Notes under the pieces: model-generated
Told to the model about the DNA's origin: nothing
Seen by the model: the letters and a program-made list of their open reading frames with translations, nothing else
Databases searched by the model: none
Part shown: positions 1,984-20,000 of the stretch, in pieces
How the letters are laid out: every line of letters begins with the position of its first letter
How positions within the stretch are numbered: position 1 is the stretch's first letter
Made by a program: the position numbers and the translations under genes
IMG/VR virus record: IMGVR_UViG_3300002124_000007
Span: 44,718-64,717 of that record
Direction: 5' to 3' (one strand)
Origin: an uncultured virus (IMG/VR IMGVR_UViG_3300002124_000007)
Taxonomy: Duplodnaviria > Heunggongvirae > Uroviricota > Caudoviricetes
Length of the DNA stretch: 20,000 nt

Positions 1984-1989
1984 GTAATA

Positions 1990-2018: not shown

Positions 2019-2025
2019 ATAACTC

Positions 2026-2871
2026 TTACCAGAAGTCGCCCGATGTCCAAGCCATAAGACCTGTTGCCGCCCACTTGGATTGAAAGATCATTTTGTTGTG
2101 CTGAAGGGGAAACGGTCTGCGCTTCTTCTCTGCCGTTCCACCAACATAATGATATCCTGTGGCATGAGTATTTACATAGTTTCTAAGTCCTGCCGCACGA
2201 ACCTTGAAGCACAAGTCCACATCTTCCCATGTCCCCAAACCATAGACAGGATCAAAACCCTGCAACTTATTGAATAGATTTCTGCGAATAGTCAAGCAAG
2301 CTCCGGTAATCGCAATCACATCTCGATTGATACAGGTTCTTGGATTCTCTGGACTCCATCCCACTAAAGGATGTTCTGCATCACCACGAATATTTAGAGC
2401 CATGCCCACGTGCTGAACCTTACCCGCTGGACGAATAGGTGACGTGGAATCTGGTGGGAAGATCAGCTTGATTCCTACTGTCCCTACCGTTTCATCTTTG
2501 AATGTATCTACCACCTTTTGAATTGTGCCTTCGTGAATCTCAACATCATCATTCAAAAACATAATGAGGGGCGCAGACCCCATTCTTGCTCCTTCATTAT
2601 TTGATTGTGAAAATCCCAATTCTTGCTTGAAGTGCTTGACTTGCAAGGATAATACAGAACTTCCTTCGCGCTTGAAAAACAATTCACTGTTGTCTCGATA
2701 TTCTTCGGCGGGAGATGCATTGTCCATAATATAAATAGAAAGTGGAACGCTTTCTGCTTCTCGATACAAAGCATCAAGACACTTGGAGAGCATATCAAAT
2801 CTGCCGCCAGTAACGATAACTACATCTAACACAGATTTTTGGCTACTCTGATGCTTCTGTTTTCGGCTCAT
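2026..2871 (-). CDS. Glycosyltransferase family 2 (GT-A fold, WbbL/RfbC-like)
   Basis: VVIVT..., MDNAS, GFSQSNNEG, FLNDD (DxD-like), AITGACL, GFDPVYGLGTWEDVDLC. Confidence 0.92.
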   Translation of the reverse strand: MSRKQKHQSSQKSVLDVVIVTGGRFDMLSKCLDALYREAESVPLSIYIMDNASPAEEYRDNSELFFKREGSSVLSLQVKHFKQELGFSQSNNEGARMGSAPLIMFLNDDVEIHEGTIQKVVDTFKDETVGTVGIKLIFPPDSTSPIRPAGKVQHVGMALNIRGDAEHPLVGWSPENPRTCINRDVIAITGACLTIRRNLFNKLQGFDPVYGLGTWEDVDLCFKVRAAGLRNYVNTHATGYHYVGGTAEKKRRPFPLQHNKMIFQSKWAATGLMAWTSGDFW

Positions 2872-5052: not shown

Positions 5053-5249
5053 TCTACAATCTTTCTTCTAATAATAACCTGAAGCGTAATCCCCTCGGTC
5101 AATTCTTTTTCATCTCTTGATAAAGGAAGTTTATATATTTCATCCAAAGCTCGCTTTAGGTCATCTAGATTATCTATATAATTAGTTCCCAAGGCAACTG
5201 TATCCCTTTTCTCGTTTAGACTATAAATTGAATAATTCCAATATCTCAT
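5049..5249 (-). CDS. Small hypothetical protein
   Basis: 66 aa; ATGA overlaps with both neighbours. Confidence 0.65.
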   Translation of the reverse strand: MRYWNYSIYSLNEKRDTVALGTNYIDNLDDLKRALDEIYKLPLSRDEKELTEGITLQVIIRRKIVE

Positions 5250-6496
5250 TTTGATATTCCTTCTTCTTCTAATTCTTTATTGAGTTTGTGCCAAAAGTCA
5301 TCAATCTCCTGCACCGAGACTTTTGATGTGGAGACAAATGAATGGTTCATATCATTCTTGCCCATATAGAACCAATCATCTGAAACATTATGCTCTATTC
5401 TAATATCGTAATTTTCTGGATGATTCCCCAAGGGTGTTCCAGGGAACGGTATAAGTCTTCCAACTTGCACTCTATCAGGTCTATACTCAAGTATCCACTT
5501 CCTAGTTTCTTGCATGGTAGCCAACGATTCCCCTGGGAGTCCGAGTATAAAGGATGTTTTACACCGTATCCCAAGTTCTTTGCACCACCTAACAATATTC
5601 GTATCCTGTTCAATCGTAGTCTTTTTGGTAATATTGTTCTTGATTTCGTTAGAAGCACTCTCCACTCCAACAAAAATTTCAACCAATCCGCCATCTCTTA
5701 GTTCTTTAAGATAGTCATATCCGCCCTGATTGTTGATGATATCACTCCGCAGGAAGCATCGCCAGATCATATTATATTTTCTATGTAGCTTCATTAATTC
5801 CAGCGTACGTTTTTTGTACAATGGAAGGATGTCATCGTAGTACGCAAGAGCCTGATAGCCTAAAGATTGTGCTTCTTTGATTTGATACTCCACTACATCC
5901 AAAGGTTCATAACGTGTAAGCCTGTCCCAAATGACGCCATGCCTTCCTGACTCACAAAATGCACATTCCAACGGACATCCACGAGAGGTGAACATAGTCG
6001 TGCAATCTATCTTTGTTCCATCTAAGTCTGTGAGTTGAGAAGAATACTTGCGTGACCATCTACGAACAGGAGGGATTACCCAATCCAATGTACGAGAGAT
6101 AGGAACAGAAAGATAAGGATTATCGTAATCTGGATTATGTAAAATTGTATGTATACTTTCTGGACTATCTGACTCTCCTCCTACAATCAAATCGTAATCT
6201 AAGTCTTTACAACTATCAGGATTTGCCCATACAGATGCCCCACCAAGAATCAATCTAGCATCATATCCGCCTAAAGACTTAGCAAGAGATTTAATTTCTT
6301 TCATCTGTGGGCTGGTAGCAGAAATCCAAATCTCATCATATACGTTAGAAGGTAATTCATCTACGTTCAAATCAAAAAATTCTGTTGTATGTCCTAATGA
6401 TTCTAAACGGGCCGCAAGATAAAAAAGTCCCAACGGCTGAAAAACCATAGGCATTTCAAGAAAAGTGCTTTTAGGCATTACCAAGGCAATGTTCAT
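5246..6496 (-). CDS. Cobalamin-binding (class B) radical SAM protein, probable methyltransferase
   Basis: N-terminal B12-binding domain (QPLGLFYLAARL, ILGGA), TSRGCPLECAFC (CxxxCxxC), YDD, VGVESAS, SFILGLPGES, PFPGTPL. Start placed at ATG 6496 (ATGA overlap). Confidence 0.9.
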   Translation of the reverse strand: MNIALVMPKSTFLEMPMVFQPLGLFYLAARLESLGHTTEFFDLNVDELPSNVYDEIWISATSPQMKEIKSLAKSLGGYDARLILGGASVWANPDSCKDLDYDLIVGGESDSPESIHTILHNPDYDNPYLSVPISRTLDWVIPPVRRWSRKYSSQLTDLDGTKIDCTTMFTSRGCPLECAFCESGRHGVIWDRLTRYEPLDVVEYQIKEAQSLGYQALAYYDDILPLYKKRTLELMKLHRKYNMIWRCFLRSDIINNQGGYDYLKELRDGGLVEIFVGVESASNEIKNNITKKTTIEQDTNIVRWCKELGIRCKTSFILGLPGESLATMQETRKWILEYRPDRVQVGRLIPFPGTPLGNHPENYDIRIEHNVSDDWFYMGKNDMNHSFVSTSKVSVQEIDDFWHKLNKELEEEGISK

Positions 6497-7185
6497 TCTT
6501 GCGCCCAATCCGGTAAATCTCTCAACTCTCCATTGGTTTCCAACGGATGTAACATAGGAAGTCCAAGAGCATTATACCGTTTCAACTTGGCATATATCGT
6601 GTCTGGCCCATAAGATTTATGCAGAAGACAGTACGGAGGCTTTAATTTCATGGTCACAGACTCATCCGCCAATCCAAGAAGCGTCCCATGTCGTACTGAC
6701 ATGTCAGCATAAATATCTACTACATCAGGACGCCAAGCCCATAGAGAACGATAATCTTCATGGAAATCCCTATTCATATAAGGAAAGTATTTATCATCTC
6801 CCCATAGATATAGACGGAAGGTATTTATTTGATGATATTGAAACATGTGTGCATATTTAAATATCGCCCTAGCCTCTTGTCTTAGAGTAAATGTTGGCAC
6901 ATCATCCATATCGTCAAAGATAATCCAATCTGGCTTCAATTCTTTTGCGGCATCTAACACAAAATTCATGTGTGGCGCATCTGGATTCCAAGTCTGCCCA
7001 TCTACTGTTTCTTGCTCTGTAAAGTGTAATAATTTCACTTTGGGATATTTCTTTAACATTTCCACAGAGTTGTCGGTTGAGCCTCCATCAGAGACTACAA
7101 TCATATCTGCAAAATCATAGCCACGCATGAAGCGTTCAATGTTCTTCTCTTCATTGTAACAGCGTACAGCCACTACAATTTTCAT
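6493..7185 (-). CDS. Glycosyltransferase family 2
   Basis: VRCYNEEKNIERF, VSDGGSTDNSVE, WIIFDDMDD. Start placed at ATG 7185 (ATGA overlap). Confidence 0.88.
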   Translation of the reverse strand: MKIVVAVRCYNEEKNIERFMRGYDFADMIVVSDGGSTDNSVEMLKKYPKVKLLHFTEQETVDGQTWNPDAPHMNFVLDAAKELKPDWIIFDDMDDVPTFTLRQEARAIFKYAHMFQYHQINTFRLYLWGDDKYFPYMNRDFHEDYRSLWAWRPDVVDIYADMSVRHGTLLGLADESVTMKLKPPYCLLHKSYGPDTIYAKLKRYNALGLPMLHPLETNGELRDLPDWAQE

Positions 7186-7853
7186 ATAATGGGTTCCCAT
7201 ACTACAGGAAAGCCGTTTGCCTTCCTAGCTTCATATACTATTCCATCATACATTGCCAAAGAATTTTCGTCTTTCCACTTATCATGGACATCATAAGGTC
7301 GTTTTCCATGAGCCGAATGTACATGCTCTACGATTGCCCTTTTGTCCCAATAAAACTTATTGAATAGCTTTGCTGTCTCATTAATTTCAGCATCTACACA
7401 CAAATACTCATAGACAGGCGGAGCAATCACTCCTCCCATATACTCTTTGCAATACCTTCTATCAAACATAAATTGTGTAGCAACTTGTAGATTTCCGTCA
7501 TAAGCCAAATCATTGAAGCCAACAACCCCACACCTGCCTAGCTTTTCTGCATGACTTTCTAATCCATACCTGAGCCAGTTCTCGTGGTATATCAAATCAT
7601 CCATAGAGGGGTGAATCATATCACCTGTAGACAACTTCAAACCCTTATTCCAAAGAGATAAAACGTTCCTACGATAATCACTATAATCTACAATACACCC
7701 ATAATCTAAAGCAATTTGGCAAGATTCTAAATCATCATCTATCAACACAATGGTTTCTATATCATAGTCATGAGTAGTTGCAACAAGACTATCCAGCATC
7801 GTTTTCAAAATTGTTGGACGTTTACAAGTGGGCAGAATAACAGAAACTTTCAT
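7182..7853 (-). CDS. Glycosyltransferase family 2
   Basis: MKVSVILPTCKRP, LIDDD, LWNKGLKLSTGD, SMDD, YLCVDAEI, VEHVH. Confidence 0.85.
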   Translation of the reverse strand: MKVSVILPTCKRPTILKTMLDSLVATTHDYDIETIVLIDDDLESCQIALDYGCIVDYSDYRRNVLSLWNKGLKLSTGDMIHPSMDDLIYHENWLRYGLESHAEKLGRCGVVGFNDLAYDGNLQVATQFMFDRRYCKEYMGGVIAPPVYEYLCVDAEINETAKLFNKFYWDKRAIVEHVHSAHGKRPYDVHDKWKDENSLAMYDGIVYEARKANGFPVVWEPII

Positions 7854-8788
7854 CGTTCTAACAACTTCCTTTCAAAATTCTCACGAACATCTTCTACAGC
7901 ATGAGTTCTATAATACCAGTCTACTGTATTTTGCACTCCCTGATCGAATGAGAAGTTTCTTTCCCATCCCAAAGAATGTATTTTTGTAGTATCTGCAATT
8001 TTGATTGGGCCAATAGGCATATCGGAACGAAAAACAATTTTTTTAGGACTCCAACCTACATAATACCAGATGACATCTAAAGCATCCATAGGAGTATATA
8101 GCTTTCCAGAGCCTATATCGACTTCTCCATCATCCATTTTCTCGGCGGCTAACAAGACTCCTTCAACCAAATCCTTTACATAAATCCAGTCTATCTTTTG
8201 ATTTCCATCTCCCCAAACTTCAAAGGGGTCTTGCTGGATAAAAGTCTTGGCGATCAGCGCACCAATGGCTCTATTCTCTTTCATTCGAGGGCCATATACG
8301 GTATAGGGACGGACAGAAATTCCACTAAATGAATTTTCAATGCTGAAGTCCTTCAACATTTGCTCACCCAACGATTTTTCCAGTCCATACACACCATCAA
8401 TTTCTCCAACAGCGCAAGCACTACTAAAAAATACAACCTTTTCAACCTGTTCACACGCCCTAAAAATAGTAGTATCCAGTTCCAAATTTCCCCACATTCT
8501 AGCATTATGATTTGTAAAATATCCCCTTCCCCCATTATCCGAGGCTAGATGAAATATGATATCAGACCCTTTCATAGCATGAACACATGAACTAAAGTTC
8601 CTCAAATCTGCTTGATAAATATATGCATCTTTGGGAATGTTTTTGTATAAGCCTGCTGAAAAGTCATCTACTACAATGACACTTTTTGCGACATTCAATA
8701 AAGATTCTGTAAGATGAGAACCAATAAATCCTGCCCCTCCAAGGACACACACCTGCTTGGATTTCCAAAAATCGTTCAATTTATTCAT
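7850..8788 (-). CDS. NAD-dependent NDP-sugar epimerase/dehydratase (extended SDR), GDP-mannose 3,5-epimerase-like
   Basis: GGAGFIG, HLASDNGGRGYF (cf. LAADMGGMGFI in GME, recalled), SSAC, YGLEK (YxxxK), VWGDGNQ, YVKDLVEG. Confidence 0.85.
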   Translation of the reverse strand: MNKLNDFWKSKQVCVLGGAGFIGSHLTESLLNVAKSVIVVDDFSAGLYKNIPKDAYIYQADLRNFSSCVHAMKGSDIIFHLASDNGGRGYFTNHNARMWGNLELDTTIFRACEQVEKVVFFSSACAVGEIDGVYGLEKSLGEQMLKDFSIENSFSGISVRPYTVYGPRMKENRAIGALIAKTFIQQDPFEVWGDGNQKIDWIYVKDLVEGVLLAAEKMDDGEVDIGSGKLYTPMDALDVIWYYVGWSPKKIVFRSDMPIGPIKIADTTKIHSLGWERNFSFDQGVQNTVDWYYRTHAVEDVRENFERKLLER

Positions 8789-9371
8789 ATCTTAATAAAT
8801 TCAAAAAAGTATTTCTATTCTCATCTAAATCTTTGTATGTCATACTCTTTATCTGCTCGATTGAGTATGAAAGCAAATTGATTTGTGTATCTTTTCTGAC
8901 AATGCCAATTCCACAATCTAAATCATGCACAGTAACATATAAATCAGGACGAGTTCTTAATGTAAGAATTGTTTTCCAAACTTCCCCACACCAGTCAGGA
9001 GATGCCTCTATGTATTTAGGAGTTGCCATCTCTGCTTTTGTGGGATTGCAATCATGAAGAAGAATAACTCCATTAGGGTTCATCCAACGCAAACAATTTT
9101 CTACGTCTCTTAGAGATTGTTCATAAGTATGATCCCCATCTATAAAAGCCGCATCAAAATGAGATGGGTGATAGAAAAAATAATCATCGCTAGACATCTC
9201 ATAAAACGTATCATTCTCATGATTTACAGGAACCGGAAAGTGAACATCTACCCCAATTTTATTCTTGCAGAGGATTGGAAAGAATGAATCTCCATTTCTA
9301 ACCCCGATTTCAAGATAGGTTTCTGCATCCAAAAAATCAATAAACCATTGGATTACATCAACCCTATTCAT
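8781..9371 (-). CDS. Class I SAM-dependent methyltransferase (Methyltransf_24-like)
   Basis: YLEIGVRNG, FDAAFIDGDHTYEQ, GVILLHDCNP, WCGEVWK. Confidence 0.88.
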   Translation of the reverse strand: MNRVDVIQWFIDFLDAETYLEIGVRNGDSFFPILCKNKIGVDVHFPVPVNHENDTFYEMSSDDYFFYHPSHFDAAFIDGDHTYEQSLRDVENCLRWMNPNGVILLHDCNPTKAEMATPKYIEASPDWCGEVWKTILTLRTRPDLYVTVHDLDCGIGIVRKDTQINLLSYSIEQIKSMTYKDLDENRNTFLNLLRYE

Positions 9372-9541
9372 CCTATCATCTCTTTCATTAAGCCTTTCAA
9401 ACTAGACAATTCAGCTTTCAATTCTATTTCAGGTAATTTTGCTAAATCAAATGGAAACATGTGTGGATTTGAATATGCCGCAATCAGGGTTGCCAGGACA
9501 TATAATGTTTCATTCATTTCATTCTCATCAAAAAGTTCCAT
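9368..9541 (-). CDS. Small hypothetical protein
   Basis: Its stop overlaps the methyltransferase start (ATGA). Start uncertain (9541, 9547 or 9568). Confidence 0.5.
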   Translation of the reverse strand: MELFDENEMNETLYVLATLIAAYSNPHMFPFDLAKLPEIELKAELSSLKGLMKEMIG

Positions 9542-9761
9542 TGCCATGCCTAAATTGAGGACAGACAAATTTCTTGTTGTTTTCAGTTAATCCACAGGCA
9601 ATACATTGAGATGTAAACCATTCCTCTAACGTACCAAAATTGTAAGTATAAGAATGATCTTTCAATTCGTGTCCACATTCTGTACAAGTAAGTTCTATCA
9701 TTCTTGACACTGTGTCATTTACTTCTAGTCGTATAATCTTTCCATTTGCTTCTACTATCAT
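9528..9761 (-). CDS. Small putative Zn-binding protein
   Basis: CTECGHELKDH ... CIACG ... CPQF pattern; ATG 9761 overlaps the upstream stop (ATGA). Confidence 0.6.
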   Translation of the reverse strand: MIVEANGKIIRLEVNDTVSRMIELTCTECGHELKDHSYTYNFGTLEEWFTSQCIACGLTENNKKFVCPQFRHGNGTF

Positions 9762-10360
9762 CTTTTCTTCTCGCTCATAATCCAATACTCGTTCGGACGA
9801 AGCTCATTATTTTCTTCATTCCACGTCAGAATATTTATGTGTTCCCACATAACATTCCAGCCAGAGACTTTTAAAAGGTTTTTGATTTGCTCCATATTCA
9901 TAACACTATAATGGTTTTTACCTACATAGGTATACCACTCAGGGGCAGGCAAAACCAGCCCAAGCCAGTTTTTAGAAACTCTTGCCCATTCCATTAGGGT
10001 TAATAACGGCATTGGAGAATGTTCTAAAGAGTGCCTGGAAAATACCAAATCAAATGAATCATCCTTATAATCCAAGAAGTTGAAGTCCATCCTCTTGACG
10101 TTGCGTCCATGATTTTGTGCATCAATATAATCTTCCCCCATACATATCCCATCGTATTTTACATCCCATTTTTCAAACATTGGCTGGCAAAATCCTGTGC
10201 CACATCCTACATCAAGAACGGATTTACAGGTCGCCATTCTACTCATCCAATAATCAATTACTTGGCGTGCAAGCTCGGTATGGCCGCTATCATCCGGTTG
10301 AGGATAAATATCCCCATATAATTTTGTAACATATTGATCGTGATGTTTCCAATCTCTCAT
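9758..10360 (-). CDS. Class I SAM-dependent methyltransferase (Methyltransf_11-like)
   Basis: SVLDVGCGTG, DDSFDLVFSRHSLEHSP, EWARV. Confidence 0.88.
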   Translation of the reverse strand: MRDWKHHDQYVTKLYGDIYPQPDDSGHTELARQVIDYWMSRMATCKSVLDVGCGTGFCQPMFEKWDVKYDGICMGEDYIDAQNHGRNVKRMDFNFLDYKDDSFDLVFSRHSLEHSPMPLLTLMEWARVSKNWLGLVLPAPEWYTYVGKNHYSVMNMEQIKNLLKVSGWNVMWEHINILTWNEENNELRPNEYWIMSEKKR

Positions 10361-10668
10361 TTCTCAAATACCAACTTTCTCATGTCTTCAAGATGCTTTT
10401 GTGTTGCGGCCAATGCCCCTGCCGAGCCTGTACCTTCTGATGGTCGCAATCCGCAGTTCCATAGATCGTCCATCAAAGCTTGAGCATCAGAATAATCCAA
10501 AGTAAACGAAGGGTTTATATATTCTACAAAACTTTTTTCATCATAAGTTGTCATAATCAAATCAGAGACAAGTGCATATAGTCTTCCCTCCCTAACTTCT
10601 GCCAAATAAAATTGTATTGACCTATGCCAAGGAGATGATATCCTAGCTTCTGCTTTTATTACAGTCAT
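10357..10668 (-). CDS. Hypothetical phage-type protein
   Basis: 103 aa with AQALMDDLWNCGLRPSEGTGSAGALAATQKHLEDMRKLVF; GGAG RBS; coupled to the next gene. Confidence 0.7.
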   Translation of the reverse strand: MTVIKAEARISSPWHRSIQFYLAEVREGRLYALVSDLIMTTYDEKSFVEYINPSFTLDYSDAQALMDDLWNCGLRPSEGTGSAGALAATQKHLEDMRKLVFEK

Positions 10669-10669
10669 T

Positions 10670-10903
10670 TTATTCTCCCAAATAAAACTTAATTGGTAAA
10701 TGCCCTATATCTAATTTTGTATGAGGAATTTTTTGTCCCTCTATATAAAAATTAAACCTAGCAGAGCCATCACCATCGACTTTCACCCTAAGTTCTCTAC
10801 TTGCCCCCACCGCCCCAAGATATTGAATAGCGCCACATATCGTTACAAAGTCTTGCAAGTCAGTATCATCTGCCTCAATCCTCATATCTATGTATTTTTT
10901 CAT
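10670..10903 (-). CDS. Small hypothetical protein
   Basis: 77 aa (VDGDGSARFNF); ATGA overlap with the rfbH stop. Confidence 0.65.
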   Translation of the reverse strand: MKKYIDMRIEADDTDLQDFVTICGAIQYLGAVGASRELRVKVDGDGSARFNFYIEGQKIPHTKLDIGHLPIKFYLGE

Positions 10904-12210
10904 TTCATTTTTCCTTCAATAAACTCATCAAATACAGAAAGCATGTAGGCAAGTCGTTCATCATCTATACTAGGATGTACACCAATCCAAAAAGAATAAT
11001 TCATTACCACATCTGAATTTATCAAGGGCTGAAAAACCTTACATTGGATAGATGAATATGCGGGTTGTCTAAGAAGATTTCCAGCAAATACCAGACGTGT
11101 GCCAATCTTCCTGCTCTCCAAAAAGTCAATCAACTCTCGCCTCGTGAATGGCGCAGATTCTTTCACGGTAATCAGGAAGCCAAACCATGACGGATTTGCG
11201 CCTTCAATATGCTGCATAAAGCGGAAATACTTTTTGTATTTATCTAATCCTTCGCGAAGAACTTGCCAATTATGTCTACGTCTTTCCACGAAAAAAGGCA
11301 ACTTCTTCAATTGTGATACTAAAAGTGATGCCTGCATGTCAGTTGCCTTCAGATTATATCCGATACGGGAAAAAGTATATTTATGGTCATAACCTTCTGG
11401 CAACTCACCTTCCTGCCAACAGAATCGTTTTCCACAAGTATTATCTTTTCCTGGCTCACACCAACAAGATTTTCCCCAATCTCTAAAACTTTGCAAAACC
11501 TTCTTCACCATAGGAGATTGGATTAGACACGCTCCCCCCTCCCCTGCCGTGATGTGATGAGCAGGGTAGAAACTGAGCGTACTAATATCACCAAAAGAGC
11601 CAAGTTGCTTACCACGAAGGCTACCCCCCAAACCGTCACAATTATCTTCGATAAGCCAGATTCCATATTCATTACAAATATCACGTAATGTTTCTGCATC
11701 GAAAGGATTACCGAGAGGATGAGCAAGAACCACACCTTTAGTTCGTCCCTCCACAATTGCATTTTCAATTATCTCCATACTCGGATTGAGTGTATTTAGG
11801 TCTACGTCCACGAAAACGGGAACAAGCCCGTTTTGGATAATAGGATTGAGAGTTGTTGGAAATCCCACTCCCACTGTAATGATTTCATCTCCAACATTTG
11901 CGCTTCGTGAGCCAAATGCCTTATCCGTAATTGTTGTGACAGCAAGTAAACTGGCAGAACTGCCACTATTAGTAAGCACAACATTACGTATTGTATGTTT
12001 GTAAAAAGTACGCAAATCTTTTTCAAATGTGTGAGCATATTTTCCTTCTGCATACCATTGTCCCAAAGCGCACTCTACAAGAGATGCTACATCATCACCG
12101 TCAAAATACTGTCCAGAGGATGTGATATAAGTTTCGCCTGGGATGAACTGTTTCTTTTTCTGACCATCAATGTTCTTTCTGACTCGCTCTATGATTTGTG
12201 CTTTGTTCAT
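10900..12210 (-). CDS. rfbH: NDP-4-keto-6-deoxyglucose 3-dehydrase (E1; RfbH/DdhC family; PMP- and [2Fe-2S]-dependent)
   Basis: NSGSSA, FPTTLNPIIQNGLVPVFVD, AHPLGNP, EDNCD, SFYPAHHITAGEGG (His in place of the DegT-family Lys), RDWGKSCWCEPGKDNTCGKRF, GYDHKYTFSRIGYNLK, FAGNLLRQPAY. Confidence 0.93.
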   Translation of the reverse strand: MNKAQIIERVRKNIDGQKKKQFIPGETYITSSGQYFDGDDVASLVECALGQWYAEGKYAHTFEKDLRTFYKHTIRNVVLTNSGSSASLLAVTTITDKAFGSRSANVGDEIITVGVGFPTTLNPIIQNGLVPVFVDVDLNTLNPSMEIIENAIVEGRTKGVVLAHPLGNPFDAETLRDICNEYGIWLIEDNCDGLGGSLRGKQLGSFGDISTLSFYPAHHITAGEGGACLIQSPMVKKVLQSFRDWGKSCWCEPGKDNTCGKRFCWQEGELPEGYDHKYTFSRIGYNLKATDMQASLLVSQLKKLPFFVERRRHNWQVLREGLDKYKKYFRFMQHIEGANPSWFGFLITVKESAPFTRRELIDFLESRKIGTRLVFAGNLLRQPAYSSIQCKVFQPLINSDVVMNYSFWIGVHPSIDDERLAYMLSVFDEFIEGKMK

Positions 12211-13064
12211 CCGTTGAATTCACTGGCAAGAAACTTTACCAATCCTTGCTCAAATGGCGGCACAAACAATCCCAATTCCTTTAACCCCGCACAATTCAGA
12301 CATCCATTTTTAGGGCGGGGAGCTTTCTGCTGCATTTCTTCAGTCGTCTTAGGAATAATCAACTTTTGCAATCCAAACTGTGTGGCAATCTTTACAGCAA
12401 AATCATATTTAGATAAGCACGTATCGCCTGCCACATGGAATAATCCTTGATATTTATCTGCCAATCCAATAGATAATCTAGCAAGATCATTTGATAATAT
12501 AGGATTCATAATTTGGTCAGTAGGAACAAATACTTTCTTTGCTTGAAAAATGGCAGAGATAACCTGCTTGGCAAAATTCTTTTTTAGCCTCTCTGTGCCA
12601 TATACTCCCACTGTTCGTACAATCACATATTTGGCATCCGATGTCAGGATGGTTTTTTCGACTGTTTCTTTTTGCACACCATATTTGTTTATAGGATGTG
12701 TCTCATCCTGTATTGTATAAGGCTCCTTCTTTGTCCCATCAAATACATAGGAAGATGAAAAATATACCAATTTGGCATTGAATGATTCGCACAAACGTAA
12801 TACAGTAATCGCACCCCTAACGTTCACTACATCTGTTCCGGCTGATTCTTCACACTTATCTACATGAGCAATTGCCGCTGGAAGATACACCACATCAGGG
12901 CGATCTTTGCTGAATACCTTGAAAAGAGTTTCATACTTTGTCAGGTCTGTATAACGCTCATTTGGATGTTTTGCTTCAACAGGTATGCCAAGGATAGCAT
13001 CTGGAATTTGCCTTGCAAGGGCTGATCCCACTAAACCACGTGCGCCAATAATCAAGGATTTCAC
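12207..13064 (-). CDS. RmlD-like NDP-4-keto-6-deoxysugar reductase (SDR)
   Basis: GARGLVG, AAIAHVDKCE, SSSYVFDGTKKEPY, PINKYGVQK, DQIMNP, APRPKN. GTG start overlaps the upstream stop. Confidence 0.88.
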   Translation of the reverse strand: MKSLIIGARGLVGSALARQIPDAILGIPVEAKHPNERYTDLTKYETLFKVFSKDRPDVVYLPAAIAHVDKCEESAGTDVVNVRGAITVLRLCESFNAKLVYFSSSYVFDGTKKEPYTIQDETHPINKYGVQKETVEKTILTSDAKYVIVRTVGVYGTERLKKNFAKQVISAIFQAKKVFVPTDQIMNPILSNDLARLSIGLADKYQGLFHVAGDTCLSKYDFAVKIATQFGLQKLIIPKTTEEMQQKAPRPKNGCLNCAGLKELGLFVPPFEQGLVKFLASEFNG

Positions 13065-13264
13065 TCAAAATTCTCCAACGTTTTCCAATGTGGATTATAT
13101 CTATAAAAAATATTTGATAGATACTGCTTAACTATTTTTCCGTTCCTAATAAATCCAATGTGACTTTTAGAAATAACCACATCATCCGCCCATACATACT
13201 CGGCCTCAGTTTCAGATGTCCATATGGTGTATTTATTCGTGGCTTCCATCGGCATGTTTTCCAT
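13061..13264 (-). CDS. Small hypothetical protein
   Basis: Up to 67 aa (start may be 13249); its stop overlaps the RmlD-like GTG start. Confidence 0.5.
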   Translation of the reverse strand: MENMPMEATNKYTIWTSETEAEYVWADDVVISKSHIGFIRNGKIVKQYLSNIFYRYNPHWKTLENFE

Positions 13265-13550
13265 ATTGAATTAGGTAATGACAAGAAATAACTTCATTCC
13301 CAATGAAAGCATTATATCTTTTGTATGCACCATAACCAACAATAATTCCAGGCGCACCGCAAGTACAAAATAATGTAGAACCTCGTGCATGACTCGCATC
13401 TCGAAAACAAAAATGCATAGAAGTTTGCAATACAGGAAACCATTGTTTGTATGACGGGAGGAAGATTTCTTTTTCCCGCTGAACGGAGACACCATTCAAA
13501 GTCGTAGCATGGTTAGGGTCATTATGATTACGAATTATATTGTTTGGCAT
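13233..13550 (-). CDS. Hypothetical protein with Cys/His motifs
   Basis: MHFC, FCTCGAPG, SCHY...GKHADGSHE; TAATG overlap with the upstream gene at 13550. Confidence 0.65.
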   Translation of the reverse strand: MPNNIIRNHNDPNHATTLNGVSVQREKEIFLPSYKQWFPVLQTSMHFCFRDASHARGSTLFCTCGAPGIIVGYGAYKRYNAFIGNEVISCHYLIQYGKHADGSHE

Positions 13551-14014
13551 TAGTCATACCATAGATAAGTAGCTGTATTCAAAAGGATTTGTTTCAACTG
13601 CGGATCAATCTTGAAACGTCCTGCATTGATTTCGATGGATTGAAAGATGTCGATGGGTTTTAGATTATGCCTCTCCCCTGCTGCCTTCCAATCACAAAGC
13701 ATCTCGATTAGATCAACCAAGTTCATTGCATTGATTCCATCAGGAAAATATTCAGGATGATGACGGTTATTGGTGTAGTGGTGATCGACTCCGACTTTCA
13801 TCTTGGATATAGTCTCACGATACACAGGGGAGCCATATTCCATTCCATTTAGTAGGGGAGTATATTTGTCGTAGATTTCTTTTTCAGGAGCCTCTAATTT
13901 GCTCATATCGTGCAGAAGAGAACGTCGAAGCAAATCTTCCACTACCTTATAAATCTTCAAACGCACATTTTGGATATGGTCTAATGTACCTTTCCAACTA
14001 TCGTAATTCACCAA
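13550..14014 (-). CDS. DUF5662-like HD-type metal-binding protein
   Basis: DHIQNV, LLHDMSKLE, HHYTNNRHHPEYF, MNLVDLIEMLCDWKAA, ILLNT. Start may be GTG 14011. Confidence 0.75.
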   Translation of the reverse strand: MVNYDSWKGTLDHIQNVRLKIYKVVEDLLRRSLLHDMSKLEAPEKEIYDKYTPLLNGMEYGSPVYRETISKMKVGVDHHYTNNRHHPEYFPDGINAMNLVDLIEMLCDWKAAGERHNLKPIDIFQSIEINAGRFKIDPQLKQILLNTATYLWYD

Positions 14015-14477
14015 ATACCTCTTTATAATAACTTTCTAAATATTTCCAGAGCGCGTCTTCTCCAAAATCTACTAGCAATCTAAATGCTCTATCTTTTGCT
14101 ACTAACCCATCATCATCTGTATATTTATAACCATAAAAACAGGGGGAATTATCAAAAACATAAGATACTCCACTATCAAAAAAAGCATCATCTTCACTCA
14201 TTCTGGTTAAGCTATAATAACAAACATCTGCTGGATACGGAGCATTAAAATGTCTAACCAAATAATCTTCCTTCCCCGAAATAATATCTATCTTTATACG
14301 AGCAAATCTTCTATTTTCAACCTGCTCATTGTACCAATTTGTTAACAATTGAAACTCAACAATTCCTCTTTCTCCAAGCACCAAAAATCTTAATTCTAAA
14401 CAATTAACTCCATAATTTTTCTTTGGGTCTGGATGAGTTCTATCATAAGCAGGAAAAAACTTTATTTCTCTTTTCAT
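13998..14477 (-). CDS. Hypothetical phage protein
   Basis: AT-rich ORF (YGVNCLELRFLVLGERGIVEFQLLTNWY ... GEDALWKYLESYYKEVF). ATG at 14477 lies 8 nt after TATAAT. Confidence 0.7.
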   Translation of the reverse strand: MKREIKFFPAYDRTHPDPKKNYGVNCLELRFLVLGERGIVEFQLLTNWYNEQVENRRFARIKIDIISGKEDYLVRHFNAPYPADVCYYSLTRMSEDDAFFDSGVSYVFDNSPCFYGYKYTDDDGLVAKDRAFRLLVDFGEDALWKYLESYYKEVFGELR

Positions 14478-14485
14478 ATACAACC

Positions 14486-14494
14486 ATTATATCA
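14486..14494 (-). promoter_or_regulatory. Extended -10 promoter element (TGnTATAAT), possibly driving a leaderless transcript
   Basis: Minus strand TGA-TATAAT-ggttgtat-ATG; the TG comes from the upstream stop codon; no SD before ATG 14477. Confidence 0.4.
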
Positions 14495-15421
14495 GGAAAT
14501 GAATCCACATTCTTTCAATATCATTGCGACACGGGCATCATAATCTTGACCTTGAACCAACTGGTAAGCTTCTTCTGCATTTGCTTCAGCCTTTTCAGGA
14601 TTGTTCTTGGCCCACAACACAGCATCAATAGCTTCCTGCATGTTGTTAAATATATGATGATGATGTAAAGATTCGTGTTTCCACCAGTCAGTGACATTAT
14701 TTATTATAGGATAAAGTTTCATGGCAGGAAGTTCAAACGCTCGACAATTCAAATCGTCCATACTTGACCAATTCAACCCAATCCTACCCTTATTGTACAA
14801 GGCTCGTGCTTCATCGAACACAGGCCCATTCTCAAATATCACACTCACACCTCGCTTACGAAGATCGTTTACCCATTGCACACGATTTTCATAAGGCATT
14901 CCTATCATAACAGCATCTACCATATCGTCTGGATTTGGAATATCTTTGGGATAAAAGTCATATTTACTATAAGCATACGGAAGGTAAATATCTCCATCCT
15001 TTGAATACACCGCCTGCATGTTGAAGAACTTATCGGAGTATTTGCGAGGAGTATCATAAAACTCATTCAGCACATGCGGGTCAGTTCCTACCGTCACAAC
15101 CATTCCATCCGAAGGCTTATACTTGGCATGAAATCCTGCATCCACTTGGATAATCAAATCGGGCTTCCAGTCTCCTAACTGCCCTTTGATAAGCTCATAA
15201 GGATATTCATTTGTGCCGAGAGTCAGAGGAAGTGGAACGTCGGGCGGAATAGCATACTTTTCTGGAAGGTTCATACCTCCAAGCCAGGGAATCCAACTCC
15301 CTGTATAAATTCCCGCCACTTTCAAATCCACATCTTCCCGATGCTCCAAGGCCTTCTTGAAATAAGTAGCCATAGCAAGAGGGTATACAAGATATGTAAG
15401 TAAGACTTTTATTTTATTCAT
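14492..15421 (-). CDS. Glycosyltransferase, GT-B fold (CgeB / Glyco_trans_1_2-like)
   Basis: GTDPHVL, YLPYAY, MIGMPYENRVQWV, LYNKGRIGLNWSSMDDLNCRAFELPAM, C-terminal DYDARVAMIL. Confidence 0.8.
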   Translation of the reverse strand: MNKIKVLLTYLVYPLAMATYFKKALEHREDVDLKVAGIYTGSWIPWLGGMNLPEKYAIPPDVPLPLTLGTNEYPYELIKGQLGDWKPDLIIQVDAGFHAKYKPSDGMVVTVGTDPHVLNEFYDTPRKYSDKFFNMQAVYSKDGDIYLPYAYSKYDFYPKDIPNPDDMVDAVMIGMPYENRVQWVNDLRKRGVSVIFENGPVFDEARALYNKGRIGLNWSSMDDLNCRAFELPAMKLYPIINNVTDWWKHESLHHHHIFNNMQEAIDAVLWAKNNPEKAEANAEEAYQLVQGQDYDARVAMILKECGFIS

Positions 15422-15824
15422 AGCAACTCTGGTTTAGAATAGTATCAACAACTTCGCCTCGCAACATAATTACATCGCTTCTCAACAACTGCGGCAAAAA
15501 CGGCATGAAGACATTGTGATAATATACAACGTCCACCTTTACGGCCTTCCCTTCACACAAAGAATTATCAGGATAAGAGATAAAAATCTCCACTTCGGGA
15601 TTGCTCAGATCGATTGGTGAATGTGAAGAATTACGAACACGCTCCTCAATTGACACTGTGTCATAAGGATACATGCTTCCATACAATGCGCCTTCTTGTG
15701 CGGCATCCTGAAGCTGAACATATTGAAAAAACATAATACCAAATTCAACTGCCCCACTTAGCAGAAACATCAACATAAGAAAACTAATTCCTAACTCAAC
15801 TAAACTTTGACCTTTATTTTTCAT
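15414..15824 (-). CDS. TadE-like pseudopilin (type IVc/Tad prepilin-like protein), 136 aa
   Basis: MKNKG|QSLVE: basic leader, Gly at -1, Glu at +5, hydrophobic helix LGISFLMLMFLLSGAVEFG, then LQDAAQEGALYGS. Start placed at ATG 15824; the longer track ORF overlaps the GT2 gene. Confidence 0.85.
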   Translation of the reverse strand: MKNKGQSLVELGISFLMLMFLLSGAVEFGIMFFQYVQLQDAAQEGALYGSMYPYDTVSIEERVRNSSHSPIDLSNPEVEIFISYPDNSLCEGKAVKVDVVYYHNVFMPFLPQLLRSDVIMLRGEVVDTILNQSCYE

Positions 15825-16494
15825 TCTCAGTCCATTTCTTACGAAACTTTTCTTTATTTGCAATAGTAATTGCCTCTCTGGCACTTCCATACGAGATACT
15901 TTGTGCCCCAATATGAGTTGTACAATCTTGTGTGAGAGCCACAAGATCAAATCCCAAGCTCTTTGCGGTTGTACAAATATCAACATCTTCCATGTCTGAT
16001 GGGGCATACCTCTCATCAAAATATCCAAGCTCTTCCCAATGTTCCTTGCGTGTGGCAAGTAACCAACCTTCCAAATATGGAAATATCTTCTTATTAAATG
16101 TGTTCCATCCCGTATCCCAATCTAAATAACGGCCTCCTACAATCGTTCTATTATAGGTCGTAGGTTGTAATGCAATAGAGATAGGAGACACGATGTCTTT
16201 ATGAATTCTAACATCATTACTAATCGTGATAATCACATCCCCCGTACAAGCCTTAATAGCGATATTGGACGCCTTCAAGAACATCACATTTTCATCCAAT
16301 TTGATGACTTTTATGGGAAGCATCCCATTCCCCTGCCACCACTTCAGGCCATCCAAAACATCTTGGTCGTTGCAATTATCGTTTACCACAACAACTTCAT
16401 GAACATCCGAACACTTCTGATATACGTCGAATAGAAGTTGGTGTGTAAGATGCCACTTACTATAAATAGGAATTGCAAAAGAAAATGTTTTCAT
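15814..16494 (-). CDS. Glycosyltransferase family 2
   Basis: FAIPIY, VVVVND, FLKASNIA, ISNDV, YLEGWLL, GYFDERYAPSDMEDVDIC. Confidence 0.9.
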   Translation of the reverse strand: MKTFSFAIPIYSKWHLTHQLLFDVYQKCSDVHEVVVVNDNCNDQDVLDGLKWWQGNGMLPIKVIKLDENVMFLKASNIAIKACTGDVIITISNDVRIHKDIVSPISIALQPTTYNRTIVGGRYLDWDTGWNTFNKKIFPYLEGWLLATRKEHWEELGYFDERYAPSDMEDVDICTTAKSLGFDLVALTQDCTTHIGAQSISYGSAREAITIANKEKFRKKWTENEK

Positions 16495-17315
16495 CTGTAA
16501 TAATCCGCAATCTCGAATATAGATTTTTGAATATCGTATTGGGACTGAAATCCCAAGCCGTGAATCTTGGATACATCCAAATAGAAATCTTTTGCCTGAA
16601 TTAATTTATGGAATTCTGGAATAGGAATTCTCTTAATGCTGCCTGTTCCTAGATACTTCTGCACAGAATACACAATTTCTTCAAAGCTATATCCTATTCC
16701 ATTGCCTACATTGTATATCTCATTTAGATTTCCGTAAACAAGGACGTGATAAATAGCATCAACCGCATCTCTCACATCAATCAAGTCACGAAGTATTTTT
16801 CCTTCATACAGAGAGACTTCTTCTCCTTGAACCAATTGCTGTATCATGTATTGCAGAGCGTTCTTCTTTTTGGAAACTTTGTGGTCATTGATCCCTATCA
16901 CATTAGACATACGAAGAATACGATAAGGAATATTACATGTTTGGCAATAGGAAATCAGTAATTGTTCCGCACATCGTTTGGTTATTGAATAAAATCCTGT
17001 GGGAAAGCAGGGTGAATCTTCTCGTGCAGGAATTTCAACCTTTCCATATACAAACCAAGATGAGATAAAGTTGAATTCAAATTCATTGCCATATTCTTTA
17101 CGACAATTTTCAAGAACATCTATCAATAAAGATAAGTTTGTATCAATGTCTAAATGTGGATTGGTATGAATATTATAATTGTCTACAGTAGATATAAAGT
17201 ATAAAATCTTGGGAGATTTGGGATAATAATCATCTCTCCCATTTGAAATAACACCATATCTACCACAAAACTCTCCCCCGATAAATCCTTTTCCAAACAC
17301 GTTTATTATGCTCAT
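16491..17315 (-). CDS. NAD-dependent NDP-sugar epimerase/reductase (extended SDR)
   Basis: FGKGFIGG, FISSWFVYG, GFYSITKRCAEQLL (YxxxK), RDLIDVRDAV, IYNVGNG. Confidence 0.85.
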   Translation of the reverse strand: MSIINVFGKGFIGGEFCGRYGVISNGRDDYYPKSPKILYFISTVDNYNIHTNPHLDIDTNLSLLIDVLENCRKEYGNEFEFNFISSWFVYGKVEIPAREDSPCFPTGFYSITKRCAEQLLISYCQTCNIPYRILRMSNVIGINDHKVSKKKNALQYMIQQLVQGEEVSLYEGKILRDLIDVRDAVDAIYHVLVYGNLNEIYNVGNGIGYSFEEIVYSVQKYLGTGSIKRIPIPEFHKLIQAKDFYLDVSKIHGLGFQSQYDIQKSIFEIADYYR

Positions 17316-18130
17316 TTTCCTGTCTCTTTCATCTCCTGCAATCCTTCAAGATGCCCGTATTGCAGTAGTCCTAACTTCTTACTCAAGTTTACATTCAGTC
17401 CTGCTTTATAAGGACGGGGTGCAACATCCATATCAAGTTCTTTATTTCTAGGCCCCACTAAAGACTCATCCAAACAATATTCCTTTGCCATATCCACAAT
17501 AAACTCGTACCAAGAAACAGTTCGTGACCCACTGATATGTAAAATATTCGGCATCTCATCAAATCTCAAAAGATATTGATAGAAGGCTTCTGCAAAATGT
17601 GGAAGGTACATGAATGAGCGTTCGATAAAGGTAGGATATGAATAAGACTGCCCTGCTCGCAGAGGATAAAGATGTTTGAATATTCGTTCGTGGTCAAAAA
17701 GATAAGATGTACGCACTACCTTCATAAATGGGAAAACTTCTCTAAGCCCCTCAGCCGCCAACTTAGTCAGTCCATAAAAGTTCTTAGGATTTGGCTTGCT
17801 ATTTTCCTTATAATTTCCCCACTTACCATCAAAAACTTGTGCTGTGGACATAAGAACCATTCCACAACCATACATCTCTGCCACTTCTGCTACATGGAAG
17901 GTTCCAATAACATTTATATCTTTGACTCTTTTTTCGTTTTCTTTCTTCTCACAAACATCTACATCAGAAATAGAAGCAAGGTGGACTATTATATCCACCT
18001 TGGTACTTCGTACAGCCAAATCAACTTCTTTCAAATTGCGAACATCGCAGGCTAATGGAACAACCTCCCCATATCTCATTAGCTCCTGTCCTACATGACC
18101 AGCATAACCCGTTAATCCATATGTTGTCAT
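17312..18130 (-). CDS. Second RmlD-like NDP-sugar reductase (SDR)
   Basis: TGYAGHVGQEL, HLASISDVDVCE, STAQVFDG, PNPKNFYGLTKLAAE, SWYEF, APRP. Confidence 0.85.
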   Translation of the reverse strand: MTTYGLTGYAGHVGQELMRYGEVVPLACDVRNLKEVDLAVRSTKVDIIVHLASISDVDVCEKKENEKRVKDINVIGTFHVAEVAEMYGCGMVLMSTAQVFDGKWGNYKENSKPNPKNFYGLTKLAAEGLREVFPFMKVVRTSYLFDHERIFKHLYPLRAGQSYSYPTFIERSFMYLPHFAEAFYQYLLRFDEMPNILHISGSRTVSWYEFIVDMAKEYCLDESLVGPRNKELDMDVAPRPYKAGLNVNLSKKLGLLQYGHLEGLQEMKETGK

Positions 18131-19176: not shown

Positions 19177-19218
19177 AGTATAAAAGAGAAATGACACGGA
19201 ATCAACCATGTCATTTCT
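19177..19218 (-). promoter_or_regulatory. sigma70-like promoter (TTGATT-17-TATACT) overlapped by a 10-bp perfect dyad (operator and/or terminator hairpin)
   Basis: TTGATT at 19205-19200, TATACT at 19182-19177. AGAAATGACA (19187-19196) and TGTCATTTCT (19209-19218) bracket the -35. On the minus strand the hairpin is followed by CTTTTAT. Confidence 0.6.
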
Positions 19219-19222: not shown

Positions 19223-19279
19223 TCAATAGGAGCGTGATGTGCTTACAGTATATGGTGGAGAAGTTTCTTTCTGTGGCAT
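19223..19279 (-). CDS. Possible 18-aa mini-ORF (MPQKETSPPYTVSTSRSY)
   Basis: AGAGGA 4 nt before ATG 19279; lies between a promoter-like motif and the hairpin. Confidence 0.3.
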   Translation of the reverse strand: MPQKETSPPYTVSTSRSY

Positions 19280-19304
19280 CTTATCCTCTTTTCTATTTAA
19301 GAGA

Positions 19305-19332
19305 ATAATACCATGTTGCAAATTAGTTACAA
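19305..19332 (-). promoter_or_regulatory. sigma70-like promoter (TTGTAA-16-TATTAT, with extended TGn)
   Basis: TTGTAA at 19332-19327, TGG-TATTAT ending at 19305; just downstream of the cassette array. Confidence 0.45.
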
Positions 19333-19346
19333 GGTAGGATTAACCC

Positions 19347-19417
19347 TACTAATGGTTTGCATTAGCGGCGCGTGCCAACAGACCGCTTTCAATAGTCGGC
19401 TCCACGCTTTGTTGGGC
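19347..19417 (-). mobile_element. Degenerate, probably chimeric, terminal attC-like site
   Basis: Top strand GCCCAAC-AAAGCGTGGAGCCGAC...GCCGCTAATGCAAACC-ATTAGTA. R'' is canonical RYYYAAC, but R' reads ATT instead of GTT and the two arms pair poorly. Confidence 0.6.
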
Positions 19418-19546
19418 GGATTCAAGATCATCAAGAATGGCTATTAGCGTGCCGCATGAAATCGTGTAAGGCTCACTCATTCCAAGCCTAGACTTTCTAG
19501 CCATCTCTTTAGCCTTTTTGCGAATATCAATCAATCCTTGTTGCAT
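19349..19546 (-). CDS. Cassette-borne hypothetical protein (65 aa) reading through the terminal attC
   Basis: AGGAG SD before ATG 19546 (MQQGLIDIRKKAKEM...); the C-terminus AQQSVEPT...ANH is encoded by the attC-like sequence. Confidence 0.6.
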   Translation of the reverse strand: MQQGLIDIRKKAKEMARKSRLGMSEPYTISCGTLIAILDDLESAQQSVEPTIESGLLARAANANH

Positions 19547-19567
19547 ATTTCTCTCCTGGGCGAGTCT

Positions 19568-19766
19568 GCCCAACTGATTAGGCTTTAGCGGCGGGGCGTC
19601 CCCAATAACCCAAACTCGCTGCGCCATAATGTTTGCAATCAACACCACAAATGGGGCAATGTTTCACATCTGCGCCATAAGCACGATGCACGTGATGACA
19701 TTTCGGGCAAGGCTTATCAGCCCACCGCCACTCTGTAGCCTCGTCCGCTGCAAGCCTGTGTTCTAC
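19568..19766 (-). mobile_element. attC-like site, 199 bp, with a ~140-nt central loop
   Basis: R'' GTAGAAC (19766-19760), R' GTTGGGC (19574-19568). Bottom (+) strand stem AGGCTT-t-AGCGG-CGGGGC pairs with GCCTCG-T-CCGCT-Gc-AAGCCT, leaving extrahelical T19744 and G19750 on the R'' arm. Confidence 0.75.
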
Positions 19767-19886
19767 CGCCACAAGCCCCTCAAGTTCCTTGATAAGCGGC
19801 AGGATTACTTTATCCCAACGTTCCTGGGTTACATACACATCCTCTTCGTAGAGCGTGTCAATTGCCTTTTGGATTATTTCTTCCAT
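19578..19886 (-). CDS. Cassette-borne hypothetical protein with a C-terminal zinc ribbon encoded inside the attC loop
   Basis: AAGGA SD, ATG 19886; CPKC-x13-CPIC; stop at 19580-19578 lies just before R'. Confidence 0.7.
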   Translation of the reverse strand: MEEIIQKAIDTLYEEDVYVTQERWDKVILPLIKELEGLVAVEHRLAADEATEWRWADKPCPKCHHVHRAYGADVKHCPICGVDCKHYGAASLGYWGRPAAKA

Positions 19887-19912
19887 CGTTTTCCTTTCGT
19901 ACGCATGAGGCG

Positions 19913-20000
19913 GTAGAACGGTTGGCGTTACCCGCTTGGGGCAACGTCATCATTGCTATCATTCGCCTCAGCCCGCCCCAAGTCGGGTGCAAGCTGTGTT
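19913..20000 (-). mobile_element. attC-like site (R'' truncated by the window edge)
   Basis: Top strand AAC-ACA-GCTTGCACCCGACTTGGGGC...GCCCCAAGCGGGTAACGC-CAACC-GTTCTAC. Bottom-strand stem ACCCG-CTTGGGGC / GCCCCAAG-T-CGGGT-G with extrahelical T19983 and G19989. Confidence 0.78.

Follow-up and report, generated by a model that had tools for sequence, protein, structure and literature searches.

Integrons are usually treated as bacterial gene-capture devices. In T4-type phages, repeated intergenic elements called promoter-stem-loops (PeSLs) bracket tiny accessory genes, and these mini-cassettes occupy a hyperplastic region with a proposed circular intermediate. PeSLs are promoters with hairpins that recombine by homology, whereas the locus described here carries IntI-type attC sites with G/TT ends. 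It lies at positions 19347–20000 of the window, by which we mean the whole 20,000-nt stretch analyzed, i.e. positions 44,718 to 64,717 of the uncultured Caudoviricetes record IMGVR_UViG_3300002124_000007 (IMG/VR). We consider it very probable that this locus forms the far end of a CALIN, a cluster of attC sites without an integron integrase, which is carried by the phage and has attC sites of a family of about 130 nt known from chromosomal integrons of Anaerolineales (Chloroflexota). The closest described systems are those of Qi et al. (2023, PMC9892861). Integron components are described there in 21 phages, including 17 CALINs and methyltransferase cassettes, and with IntI1, recombination with attI1 was obtained for five of the six phage attC sites assayed; the cases are few, and the association of phages with integrons is called infrequent.

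A number of likenesses and differences can be noted. As in the CALINs of temperate and virulent phages presented in that paper, the attC sites are co-oriented, the cassettes are small, and no intI lies nearby. One of these CALINs sits beside a terminator, as is the case here, and capture by off-target or illegitimate recombination was likewise proposed (Qi et al. 2023, PMC9892861). The phages of Qi et al. are deposited and named (Tetrasphaera, Pseudoalteromonas, Polaribacter, and others), whereas the present phage is uncultivated; it further differs by its Anaerolineales attC family, by cassettes of only 221–345 bp, and by open reading frames (ORFs) that read through attC. The Vibrio anguillarum prophages described in the same source (PMC9892861) resemble the present case in that a phage carries a piece of the attC family of its host lineage, but they excise at an attC of the host integron and take intIA with them, whereas the array studied here is internal and has no integrase. 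In two preprints, IntI is presented as able to insert cassettes outside att sites (bioRxiv 10.1101/2022.09.11.507474), and chromosomal integrons as stores of anti-phage defense cassettes (bioRxiv 10.1101/2024.07.02.601686). Phage-borne CALINs are already known, and the array of the window is a further case, partly decayed; the view of the original prediction that integrons normally reside in chromosomes, plasmids, and transposons, and that a phage array would be unusual, has been outdated since phage CALINs were described in 2023 (Qi et al. 2023, PMC9892861).

The viral record measures 64,717 bases and is classed as linear and 92% complete; the window covers its final 20 kb, and no sequence of the record lies past window position 20000. 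Two metagenome contigs, L009 and L010, were retrieved by a scan with an alignment of relatives of a 65-aa ORF of the array. Their overlap with the end of the record (1645 nt for L009, 1876 nt for L010) is 100% identical, and beyond it they reach a further 819 and 3506 nt, respectively; L010 is oriented as the minus strand of the window (window coordinate = 23507 - L010 coordinate). The array comprises at least five mini-cassettes in one orientation, a to e (273, 273, 310, 345, and 221 bp, starting at L010 positions 2732, 3005, 3278, 3588, and 3933), together with a truncated sixth. In four consecutive units of L010, a start made of GTT and 8 further nt is perfectly complementary (11/11) to an 11-mer ending in AAC that lies 145–221 nt past the start within the same unit, and the fifth unit, cassette e, has an own-start pair of 11/13. 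The paired sequences vary between units, and the complementarity is kept within each unit. This own-start rule holds for all five phage units and for both units of the related locus L011 (10/10 each), while the chance expectation of own-unit pairs, from 200 random sequences of the same composition, has a mean of 0.005 and a maximum of 1. Own-start complementarity is the footprint of IntI crossover of circular cassettes that were re-inserted at G/TT.

Three co-oriented units bounded by AAC and GTT (ATT in the last) had been predicted in the window, and all are present on its minus strand, from AAC 20000–19998 to GTT 19919–19917, from AAC 19762–19760 to GTT 19574–19572, and from AAC 19413–19411 to ATT 19353–19351. 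The attC of cassette c (19913–20000, minus strand; R'' AAC at 20000–19998, R' GTTCTAC at 19919–19913) is cut by the contig end, its complete form of 92 nt being found at L010 3503–3594. Cassette d (19574–19918, minus strand) measures 345 bp, starting with the TT of G/TT (19918) and ending with the G of position 19574. The initial 11 nt of the cassette, counted with the G at 19919 (GTTCTACCGCC, 19919–19909), are complementary at 11 of 11 positions to its own R'' box (GGCGGTAGAAC, 19770–19760), and it carries an ORF of 102 aa (19578–19886, minus strand) with the Shine-Dalgarno (SD) sequence GAAAGGAA and a C-terminal CxxC...CxxC zinc-ribbon-like motif. Its attC is degenerate and 199 nt long (19568–19766, minus strand), as read from the sequence against the family consensus. 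The two halves, R''-L'' (GTAGAAC ACAGGC TTGCAGCGGAC) and L'-R' (GCCGCTAAA GCCTAATCA GTTGGGC), are recognizable by eye about 150 nt apart, and the intervening DNA encodes the zinc-ribbon part of the 102-aa ORF. Cassette e (19353–19573, minus strand, 221 bp) starts with GTTGGGCAGACTC (19574–19562, including the G at 19574), which is complementary at 11 of 13 positions to GAATCCGCCCAAC (19423–19411). It harbors the 65-aa ORF (19349–19546, minus strand) and a shortened attC of 71 nt (19347–19417, minus strand) with R'' GCCCAAC and a mutated R' ATTAGTA in place of GTT... Both inverted repeats, the unit sizes (345 and about 220 bp in the prediction), and the presence of one SD and one small ORF per unit withstood re-reading, and each cassette of the array has its own SD and ATG. 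The window alone is not beyond chance, the contig holding 11 perfect 11-nt inverted repeats 20–250 nt apart versus 5.2 ± 2.0 in 40 randomizations; the repeats are significant because the extension contigs add further units, and not by themselves. Pairwise alignment of the three junctions of the window was also tried and proved weak, with 22, 176, and 6 of 300 shuffles scoring as high.

The sites share one layout, made of R'' (..AAC), a 5-nt spacer, L'', a variable center, L' (..TAAC), a spacer, and R' (GTT..). AAC is found in five of the five R'' boxes and GTT in four of the five R' boxes (ATT in e); the full RYYYAAC is present in b, c, and e (GCCCAAC), and GTTRRRY follows a, b, and d (GTTGGGC). 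Known attC sites range from about 57 to 141 nt, a range that includes a, b, c, and e (131, 125, 92, and 71 nt) but not d. In the predicted consensus fold, the top-strand C of GTGCA and A of GAC stay unpaired and yield an extrahelical G and T on the bottom strand. When the family structure is imposed on the six sites of the phage and L011, 89.5% of cells are paired, versus 28–37% in slid controls, in an alignment that is model-fitted and hence favors the structure, and both sides have changed in 10 of the 22 pairs. Sites a–c retain every R and L box base that is invariant in the family. By eye, the left halves closely resemble those of real sites, as seen for the phage AAC AAAGC GTGCAGCGGAC and the AAC AAATC GCTGCAGCCGAC of cmlA5, as well as for VIM-1 and arr-2.

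Two covariance models were used. The first, R1, was derived from 18 class 1 attC sites delimited in plasmid R100 and eight other class 1 arrays, in which the canonical structure pairs 86.7% of cells with strong covariation. Run with filters off, R1 ranked L010 3160–3284 and 2881–3011 among its top four matches, at full length and with the predicted ends, and it matched a site of L011 with 23.3 bits (E 0.0014). The second, R2, was derived solely from 36 intI-adjacent attC sites of three Anaerolineales genomes. It recovers four of the five phage sites, with boundaries exactly as predicted: attC a (L010 2881–3011, 131 nt, beyond the window; 56.5 bits, E 3.9e-14), attC b (L010 3160–3284, 125 nt, beyond the window; 60.5 bits, E 3.1e-15), attC c (L010 3503–3594; 55.3 bits, E 8.3e-14, and for its part at window 20000–19917, 49.6 bits, E 3.3e-12), and attC e (L010 4090–4160, i.e. 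window 19417–19347; 31.2 bits, E 3.9e-7). Both sites of L011 score higher (275–403, 80.3 bits, E 1e-20; 1038–1148, 75.5 bits, E 2.2e-19), and in the rest of the window, of L010, and of the 64.7-kb contig nothing better than E 0.4 was found. An Rfam scan returned only five chance-level matches (E >= 1.5) and no matching attC model. A rule-based scanner for attC R and L boxes, which recovers 8 of 11 real class 1 sites, gave nothing at 19300–20000 and 20 matches contig-wide versus 24.6 ± 6.0 at random; since it allows spacers of 4–6 nt and the attC family has 7 nt, this result was discarded as a false negative. Judged from these matches and the predicted fold, the identification of the sites of the array as putative attC recombination sites is supported, and the cassette-array reading of the original prediction gains from R2 matches to a, b, c, and e at E values of 3.9e-7 to 3.1e-15.

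The ends of the array are ragged. On the right, cassette e is followed by a 32-codon frame (19223–19321, minus strand) with no attC behind it. This frame is a diverged paralogue of the first 31 residues of the 65-aa ORF (BLASTP, 12/31 identical, E 5e-6) and is the remnant of a truncated extra cassette that forms the right-hand end of the array. An intrinsic-terminator-like hairpin (19187–19218, minus strand; L010 4289–4320), with 13 pairs followed by CTTTTATACT, closes the transcription unit of the array ahead of a 91-aa gene (19155–18880). On the left, only an L'-spacer-R' stub (TAACGCAAGCCGTT) is present, behind a gene for a sialate-type O-acetylesterase of the SASA family (L010 2155–2738; Pfam 1.5e-22). 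A weak R''-like box lies about 135 nt before this stub. The start of the esterase unit and this box are roughly complementary by eye (R2 4.4 bits, E 9.8), and the unit, with its phage-like GC content of 0.42, may be a decayed cassette.

The attC family is widespread in bacteria. A pattern drawn from the phage sites, for which we estimated a chance count of about 0.01 in 596 Gb, matched at least 188 stretches in bacterial genome contigs, in co-oriented arrays of up to 17 copies. Among the matches listed, 40 of the 51 titled contigs are from Chloroflexota, mostly Anaerolineales, by hand count. Eleven single or double matches lie in metagenome-assembled genomes labelled as other phyla, including two archaea (L018, L044, L045, L047, L061, L073, L078, L080, L081, L082, and L085), and could correspond to bin contamination or to cassette transfer across phyla. 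Three of five genomes with such arrays encode an integron integrase above the NCBIfam TIGR02249 cut-off (438–452 bits versus 265). The 53 kb beside these intI genes contain 43 R1 matches at E <= 1, every one of them on the strand that diverges from intI, as well as 18, 16, and 6 pattern matches in the three genomes; with R1 matches adjacent to intI, the bacterial loci are therefore complete integrons, and the class 1-derived model generalizes to them. Integrons in Chloroflexi appear in the literature. The sedentary integrons of the three Anaerolineales genomes (G001–G003) and the phage array share the same attC family and the same predicted structure, the boxes AAC A..GC GTGCA...GAC and GC...TAACGC...CCGTT being invariant and common to both. 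The Anaerolineales arrays have IntI directly upstream and divergent, and tens of cassettes with a median spacing of about 830 nt (by a strict regular expression), whereas the phage array has no IntI, five to six cassettes of about 220–350 nt, and sites with shorter or altered centers scoring 31–60 bits. It is this attC family alone that points to an Anaerolineales-like lineage as the putative host.

The surroundings of the array are those of a phage genome on both sides. Upstream on L010 are a gene for a 419-aa virion structural protein (phrog_1645, E 9.4e-21), two small zinc-ribbon ORFs, and the SASA-family carbohydrate esterase gene, all co-oriented with the cassettes. Downstream follow the terminator, small ORFs, a cluster of sugar genes, and the remaining phage. 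The array has a GC content of 0.507, compared with 0.39–0.42 upstream and 0.35–0.39 downstream. No base differs among L009, L010, and the viral record, and unitigs of the independent run X5 cross the junctions of the esterase with cassette a (L010 2512–3176) and of cassette e with the downstream region (4084–4700) without differences. A prophage boundary between 19155 and 19347 would have made the array a part of a host chromosome; no att-like boundary was seen there, this stretch consisting of the 32-codon remnant and the terminator, and the far flank encodes the virion structural protein. Because the array sits between a virion structural gene and an 18-kb cluster of sugar genes, its location inside a phage genome is supported. 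With no integrase on the contig or its extension, the array is a CALIN and not a complete integron, and it contains four model-supported sites and one degenerate site within 1.3 kb on one strand. The proposal to look past position 20000 for more of the integron was thus borne out for the cassettes, three further and better preserved units being found; it was not for intI, attI, or the cassette promoter Pc, none of which was identified.

The cargo proteins have no function assigned by Pfam, PHROGs, or the Atlas. The 102-aa protein has no PHROG match, Atlas scores below 0.9, and a sole, sub-threshold Pfam match (Zn_ribbon_IS1595, 19.8 bits versus a cut-off of 25.4); among 5.8 billion proteins only itself was found. 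When related loci were sought in viral contigs, it gave one match by its zinc finger only, and the 65-aa protein gave none. Paralogy of these two ORFs had been suspected by eye, but BLASTP showed no similarity, and the idea was dropped. The 65-aa protein has relatives elsewhere (P0003, P0004, and P0005), whose residues 1–51 are 79–100% identical to it and are followed by unrelated tails of 20–40 residues. Residue 51 corresponds to the R''/L'' part of attC, and the alignment of these relatives reads as modular replacement downstream of the L'' box. The tail of P0004 ends with ASNASHW, an attC-encoded motif. In L011, a copy of the cassette-e cargo, with 64.7% identity across 51 aa (E 1.4e-17), is joined to a full-length attC with a different R'' core and to different neighbors, and the fixed gene order that would have refuted the array is thus not seen there. 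Other homologues of cassette e carry other attC interiors as well, and in X5 there is a loose end behind L010 4113. These arrangements indicate that exchange of the units has happened somewhere. When the cargo proteins were compared by tblastn with 193 bacterial and 110 viral loci, only cassette e was recovered, in L011, the remaining matches being translated attC. In contigs of four runs, attC ends are joined in 11 different ways, with sides measuring 20–26 nt, and these joints are evidence neither of excision nor of deletion, because they are inseparable from cassettes of other organisms.

The attC family is also common in viruses, with 115 stretches matching the pattern in IMG/VR. R2 gave 291 matches (E <= 1e-3) in 69 of these viral loci, often in dense arrays of 5–11 sites spaced 230–400 nt apart, and in nine of 12 sampled viral loci the array has structural, packaging, or lysis genes no further than 10 kb away. 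The median attC spacing is 556 nt in viral versus 834 nt in bacterial loci, and 37% versus 4% of spacings are below 450 nt, which are rough figures as the strict regular expression misses many sites. IntI was examined in 50 of about 100 attC-bearing viral loci. Nine of the 50 records encode an IntI above the TIGR02249 cut-off (L212, L216, L226, L251, L261, L268, L280, L281, and L284; 376–407 bits), and a tenth reaches 257 bits. Three of the IntI-encoding records have direct terminal repeats and a CheckV completeness of 100%: one of them carries IntI, attC sites, TerL (2.8e-83), portal, and head protease genes within 12 kb, and in another, IntI and TerL share a strand with three attC sites. In L251, L261, L268, and L281, intI is directly upstream of the cassettes and on the same strand, whereas it is divergent in the chromosomal integrons of Anaerolineales. 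The IntI-bearing phages are not close relatives of the window phage (TerL identity 24–31%). Many viral arrays carry DNA methyltransferase genes between attC matches (L234 855–4339; L271 5571–8066; L217 10046–10762; L209 8790–9449; L222 7346–8092; L214 12126–12971; L261 10862–11512), which echoes the methyltransferase cassettes of Qi et al. (2023, PMC9892861).

According to the explanation that we favor, the cassettes would stem from the integron cassette pool of an Anaerolineales-like host lineage. They would have arrived as a captured piece of an array, or singly, through an IntI acting in trans that came from the host or from a co-infecting phage with an integron; en-bloc capture fits better because the array ends are ragged. 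Any further exchange would again need IntI in trans. Sites a–c, beyond the window, look intact and could still be recombinable, and sites d and e, in the window, are decayed and probably fixed. The cassettes would probably be transcribed by read-through with phage late genes and would yield small accessory proteins whose C-terminal tails are encoded by attC itself.

Several observations weigh against this explanation. R1 scores are weak on the phage sites (b, 11.5 bits, E 0.9; a, 11.0 bits, E 1.2), and R1 recognized no attC site inside the window. R2 did not recognize attC d as a whole, giving only 6.6 bits at its R' end (E 2.4); at 199 nt this site is outside the usual length, and attC e has ATT for GTT. 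All cassette ORFs run into or through their own attC, an uncommon trait among cassettes. Neither PF00589 nor TIGR02249 had a match on the 64.7-kb contig, itself 92% complete, and no integrase was found among the ORFs of the 3.5-kb extension of L010 (about 68 kb in all). Neither attI nor Pc was identified there, and promoter-like sites are at chance level (6 versus 6.2 expected). No excision or cassette circle was observed in the contigs of public runs. The cargo has no relatives in the bacterial arrays examined, and therefore an origin in a host integron is not directly seen. As to the host, the phage TerL had no match at E <= 1e-10 in 301 genomes of the class of G001, a null that, given the query, is neither support for this host nor evidence against it.

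The alternative that deserves most attention is that the array is an inert relic, i.e. a fragment of a cassette array from the host or another phage, captured once by illegitimate recombination and decaying since, with no cassette exchange in this phage. The left end is consistent with it, as only the stub TAACGCAAGCCGTT remains and its 5' half is not recognized by R2 (4.4 bits, E 9.8), and so is the right end, which falls within a cargo remnant; the degeneration of sites d and e, the lack of intI on the contig, and the identity of the array in three assemblies and in run X5 also speak for it. Yet sites a–c keep all family-invariant R and L bases and pair well, the cargo of cassette e is found elsewhere with other attC interiors and other neighbors, and viral records with their own IntI share the attC family. 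We regard the relic as a real possibility, though one that leans toward the doubtful side.

Far less room is left for explanations in which the array is not phage DNA or not an array of attC sites. It might belong to a sedentary integron of the host beside a prophage, or have been joined to the phage by the assembler at attC ends. Metagenome assemblers can mis-join at repeats, the contig does break inside an attC, and GC content jumps from 0.39 to 0.51 at the array. Both flanks are nevertheless phage-like and co-oriented (phrog_1645 and the SASA esterase on one side, small ORFs and the sugar cluster on the other), L009, L010, and the viral record are identical, X5 unitigs span both junctions, the conserved attC ends measure only about 25–30 nt, and no bacterial housekeeping gene is present on the 64.7-kb contig, all of which makes a host integron or a chimera very improbable. 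Still harder to sustain is the idea that tandem, small, paralogous phage genes mimic attC through coding motifs and mRNA hairpins acting as terminators or translational signals. The conserved boxes are indeed in frame within the ORFs (..AQQSV.., ..AANANRW), one cargo remnant is paralogous to its neighbor, and the L'' regions of the bottom strand score as terminator-like; but the 102-aa and 65-aa proteins are dissimilar, cassette c reads the boxes in different frames, unrelated genes beside bacterial intI are flanked by the same DNA elements, and an mRNA model leaves no role for own-start complementarity with GTT/AAC ends. Such mimicry seems to us hardly credible.

The phage itself is recognizable from the rest of the record, which answers the call of the original prediction to confirm that the contig is viral. 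It encodes a large terminase, TerL (phrog_979, E 2.4e-27), an endolysin (8.3e-32), a DNA polymerase (3.2e-95) with its exonuclease subunit, a primase, a helicase, and a UvsX-like recombinase. HNH endonucleases are encoded as well, and the portal match is weak; related loci sought with the portal in viral contigs gave none. PHROGs did not support the reading of large ORFs, made by eye, as tail genes. The likely genes of the window are all on its minus strand, and most of it (1–18130) is occupied by a phage-borne sugar and glycan cluster of about 18 kb, which encodes about eight glycosyltransferases (GT1, GT2, and GT4), five NAD-dependent epimerases or RmlD-type reductases, a DegT-type aminotransferase, a B12-binding radical SAM enzyme, three methyltransferases, and a DUF5662 protein. 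Three enzymes of this block are related to proteins in other attC-bearing viral loci (L220, L224, and L279). The block also contains a TadE-like pilus-assembly ORF (Pfam TadE, 1.1e-9; 15414–16058, minus strand), which overlaps a GT2 glycosyltransferase ORF and sits oddly among glycan genes. The block is followed by four small ORFs (beyond 18130), and GC content rises from about 0.39 elsewhere to 0.45–0.53 in the last 650 bases of the window. The viral record ends four bases into the R'' box of an attC (window 20000), and the repetition of attC ends is probably what interrupted the assembly of the contig there. Peaks in depth, contributed by unrelated cassettes, coincide with these ends in four metagenome runs. 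On a practical level, assemblies of such phages break at attC repeats, as the window contig does.

A broader proposal is that integron cassettes are a routine means of accessory-gene exchange for a broad set of Chloroflexota phages and not a rare accident, with the window phage using IntI in trans and with mini-cassettes that are phage-adapted, attC doubling as coding sequence. We put it forward tentatively, as an idea with somewhat less than even chances. The array itself adds a well-supported case from an uncultivated phage, using an attC family of a Chloroflexota lineage that is common in viral contigs and sometimes accompanied by a phage-encoded IntI. The finding suggests that integron parts are far more widespread in uncultivated phages than has been recorded. 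It raises the question of whether phages and their hosts share one cassette pool, and of whether cassettes such as those for methyltransferases and small proteins serve phages as exchangeable counter-defense genes.

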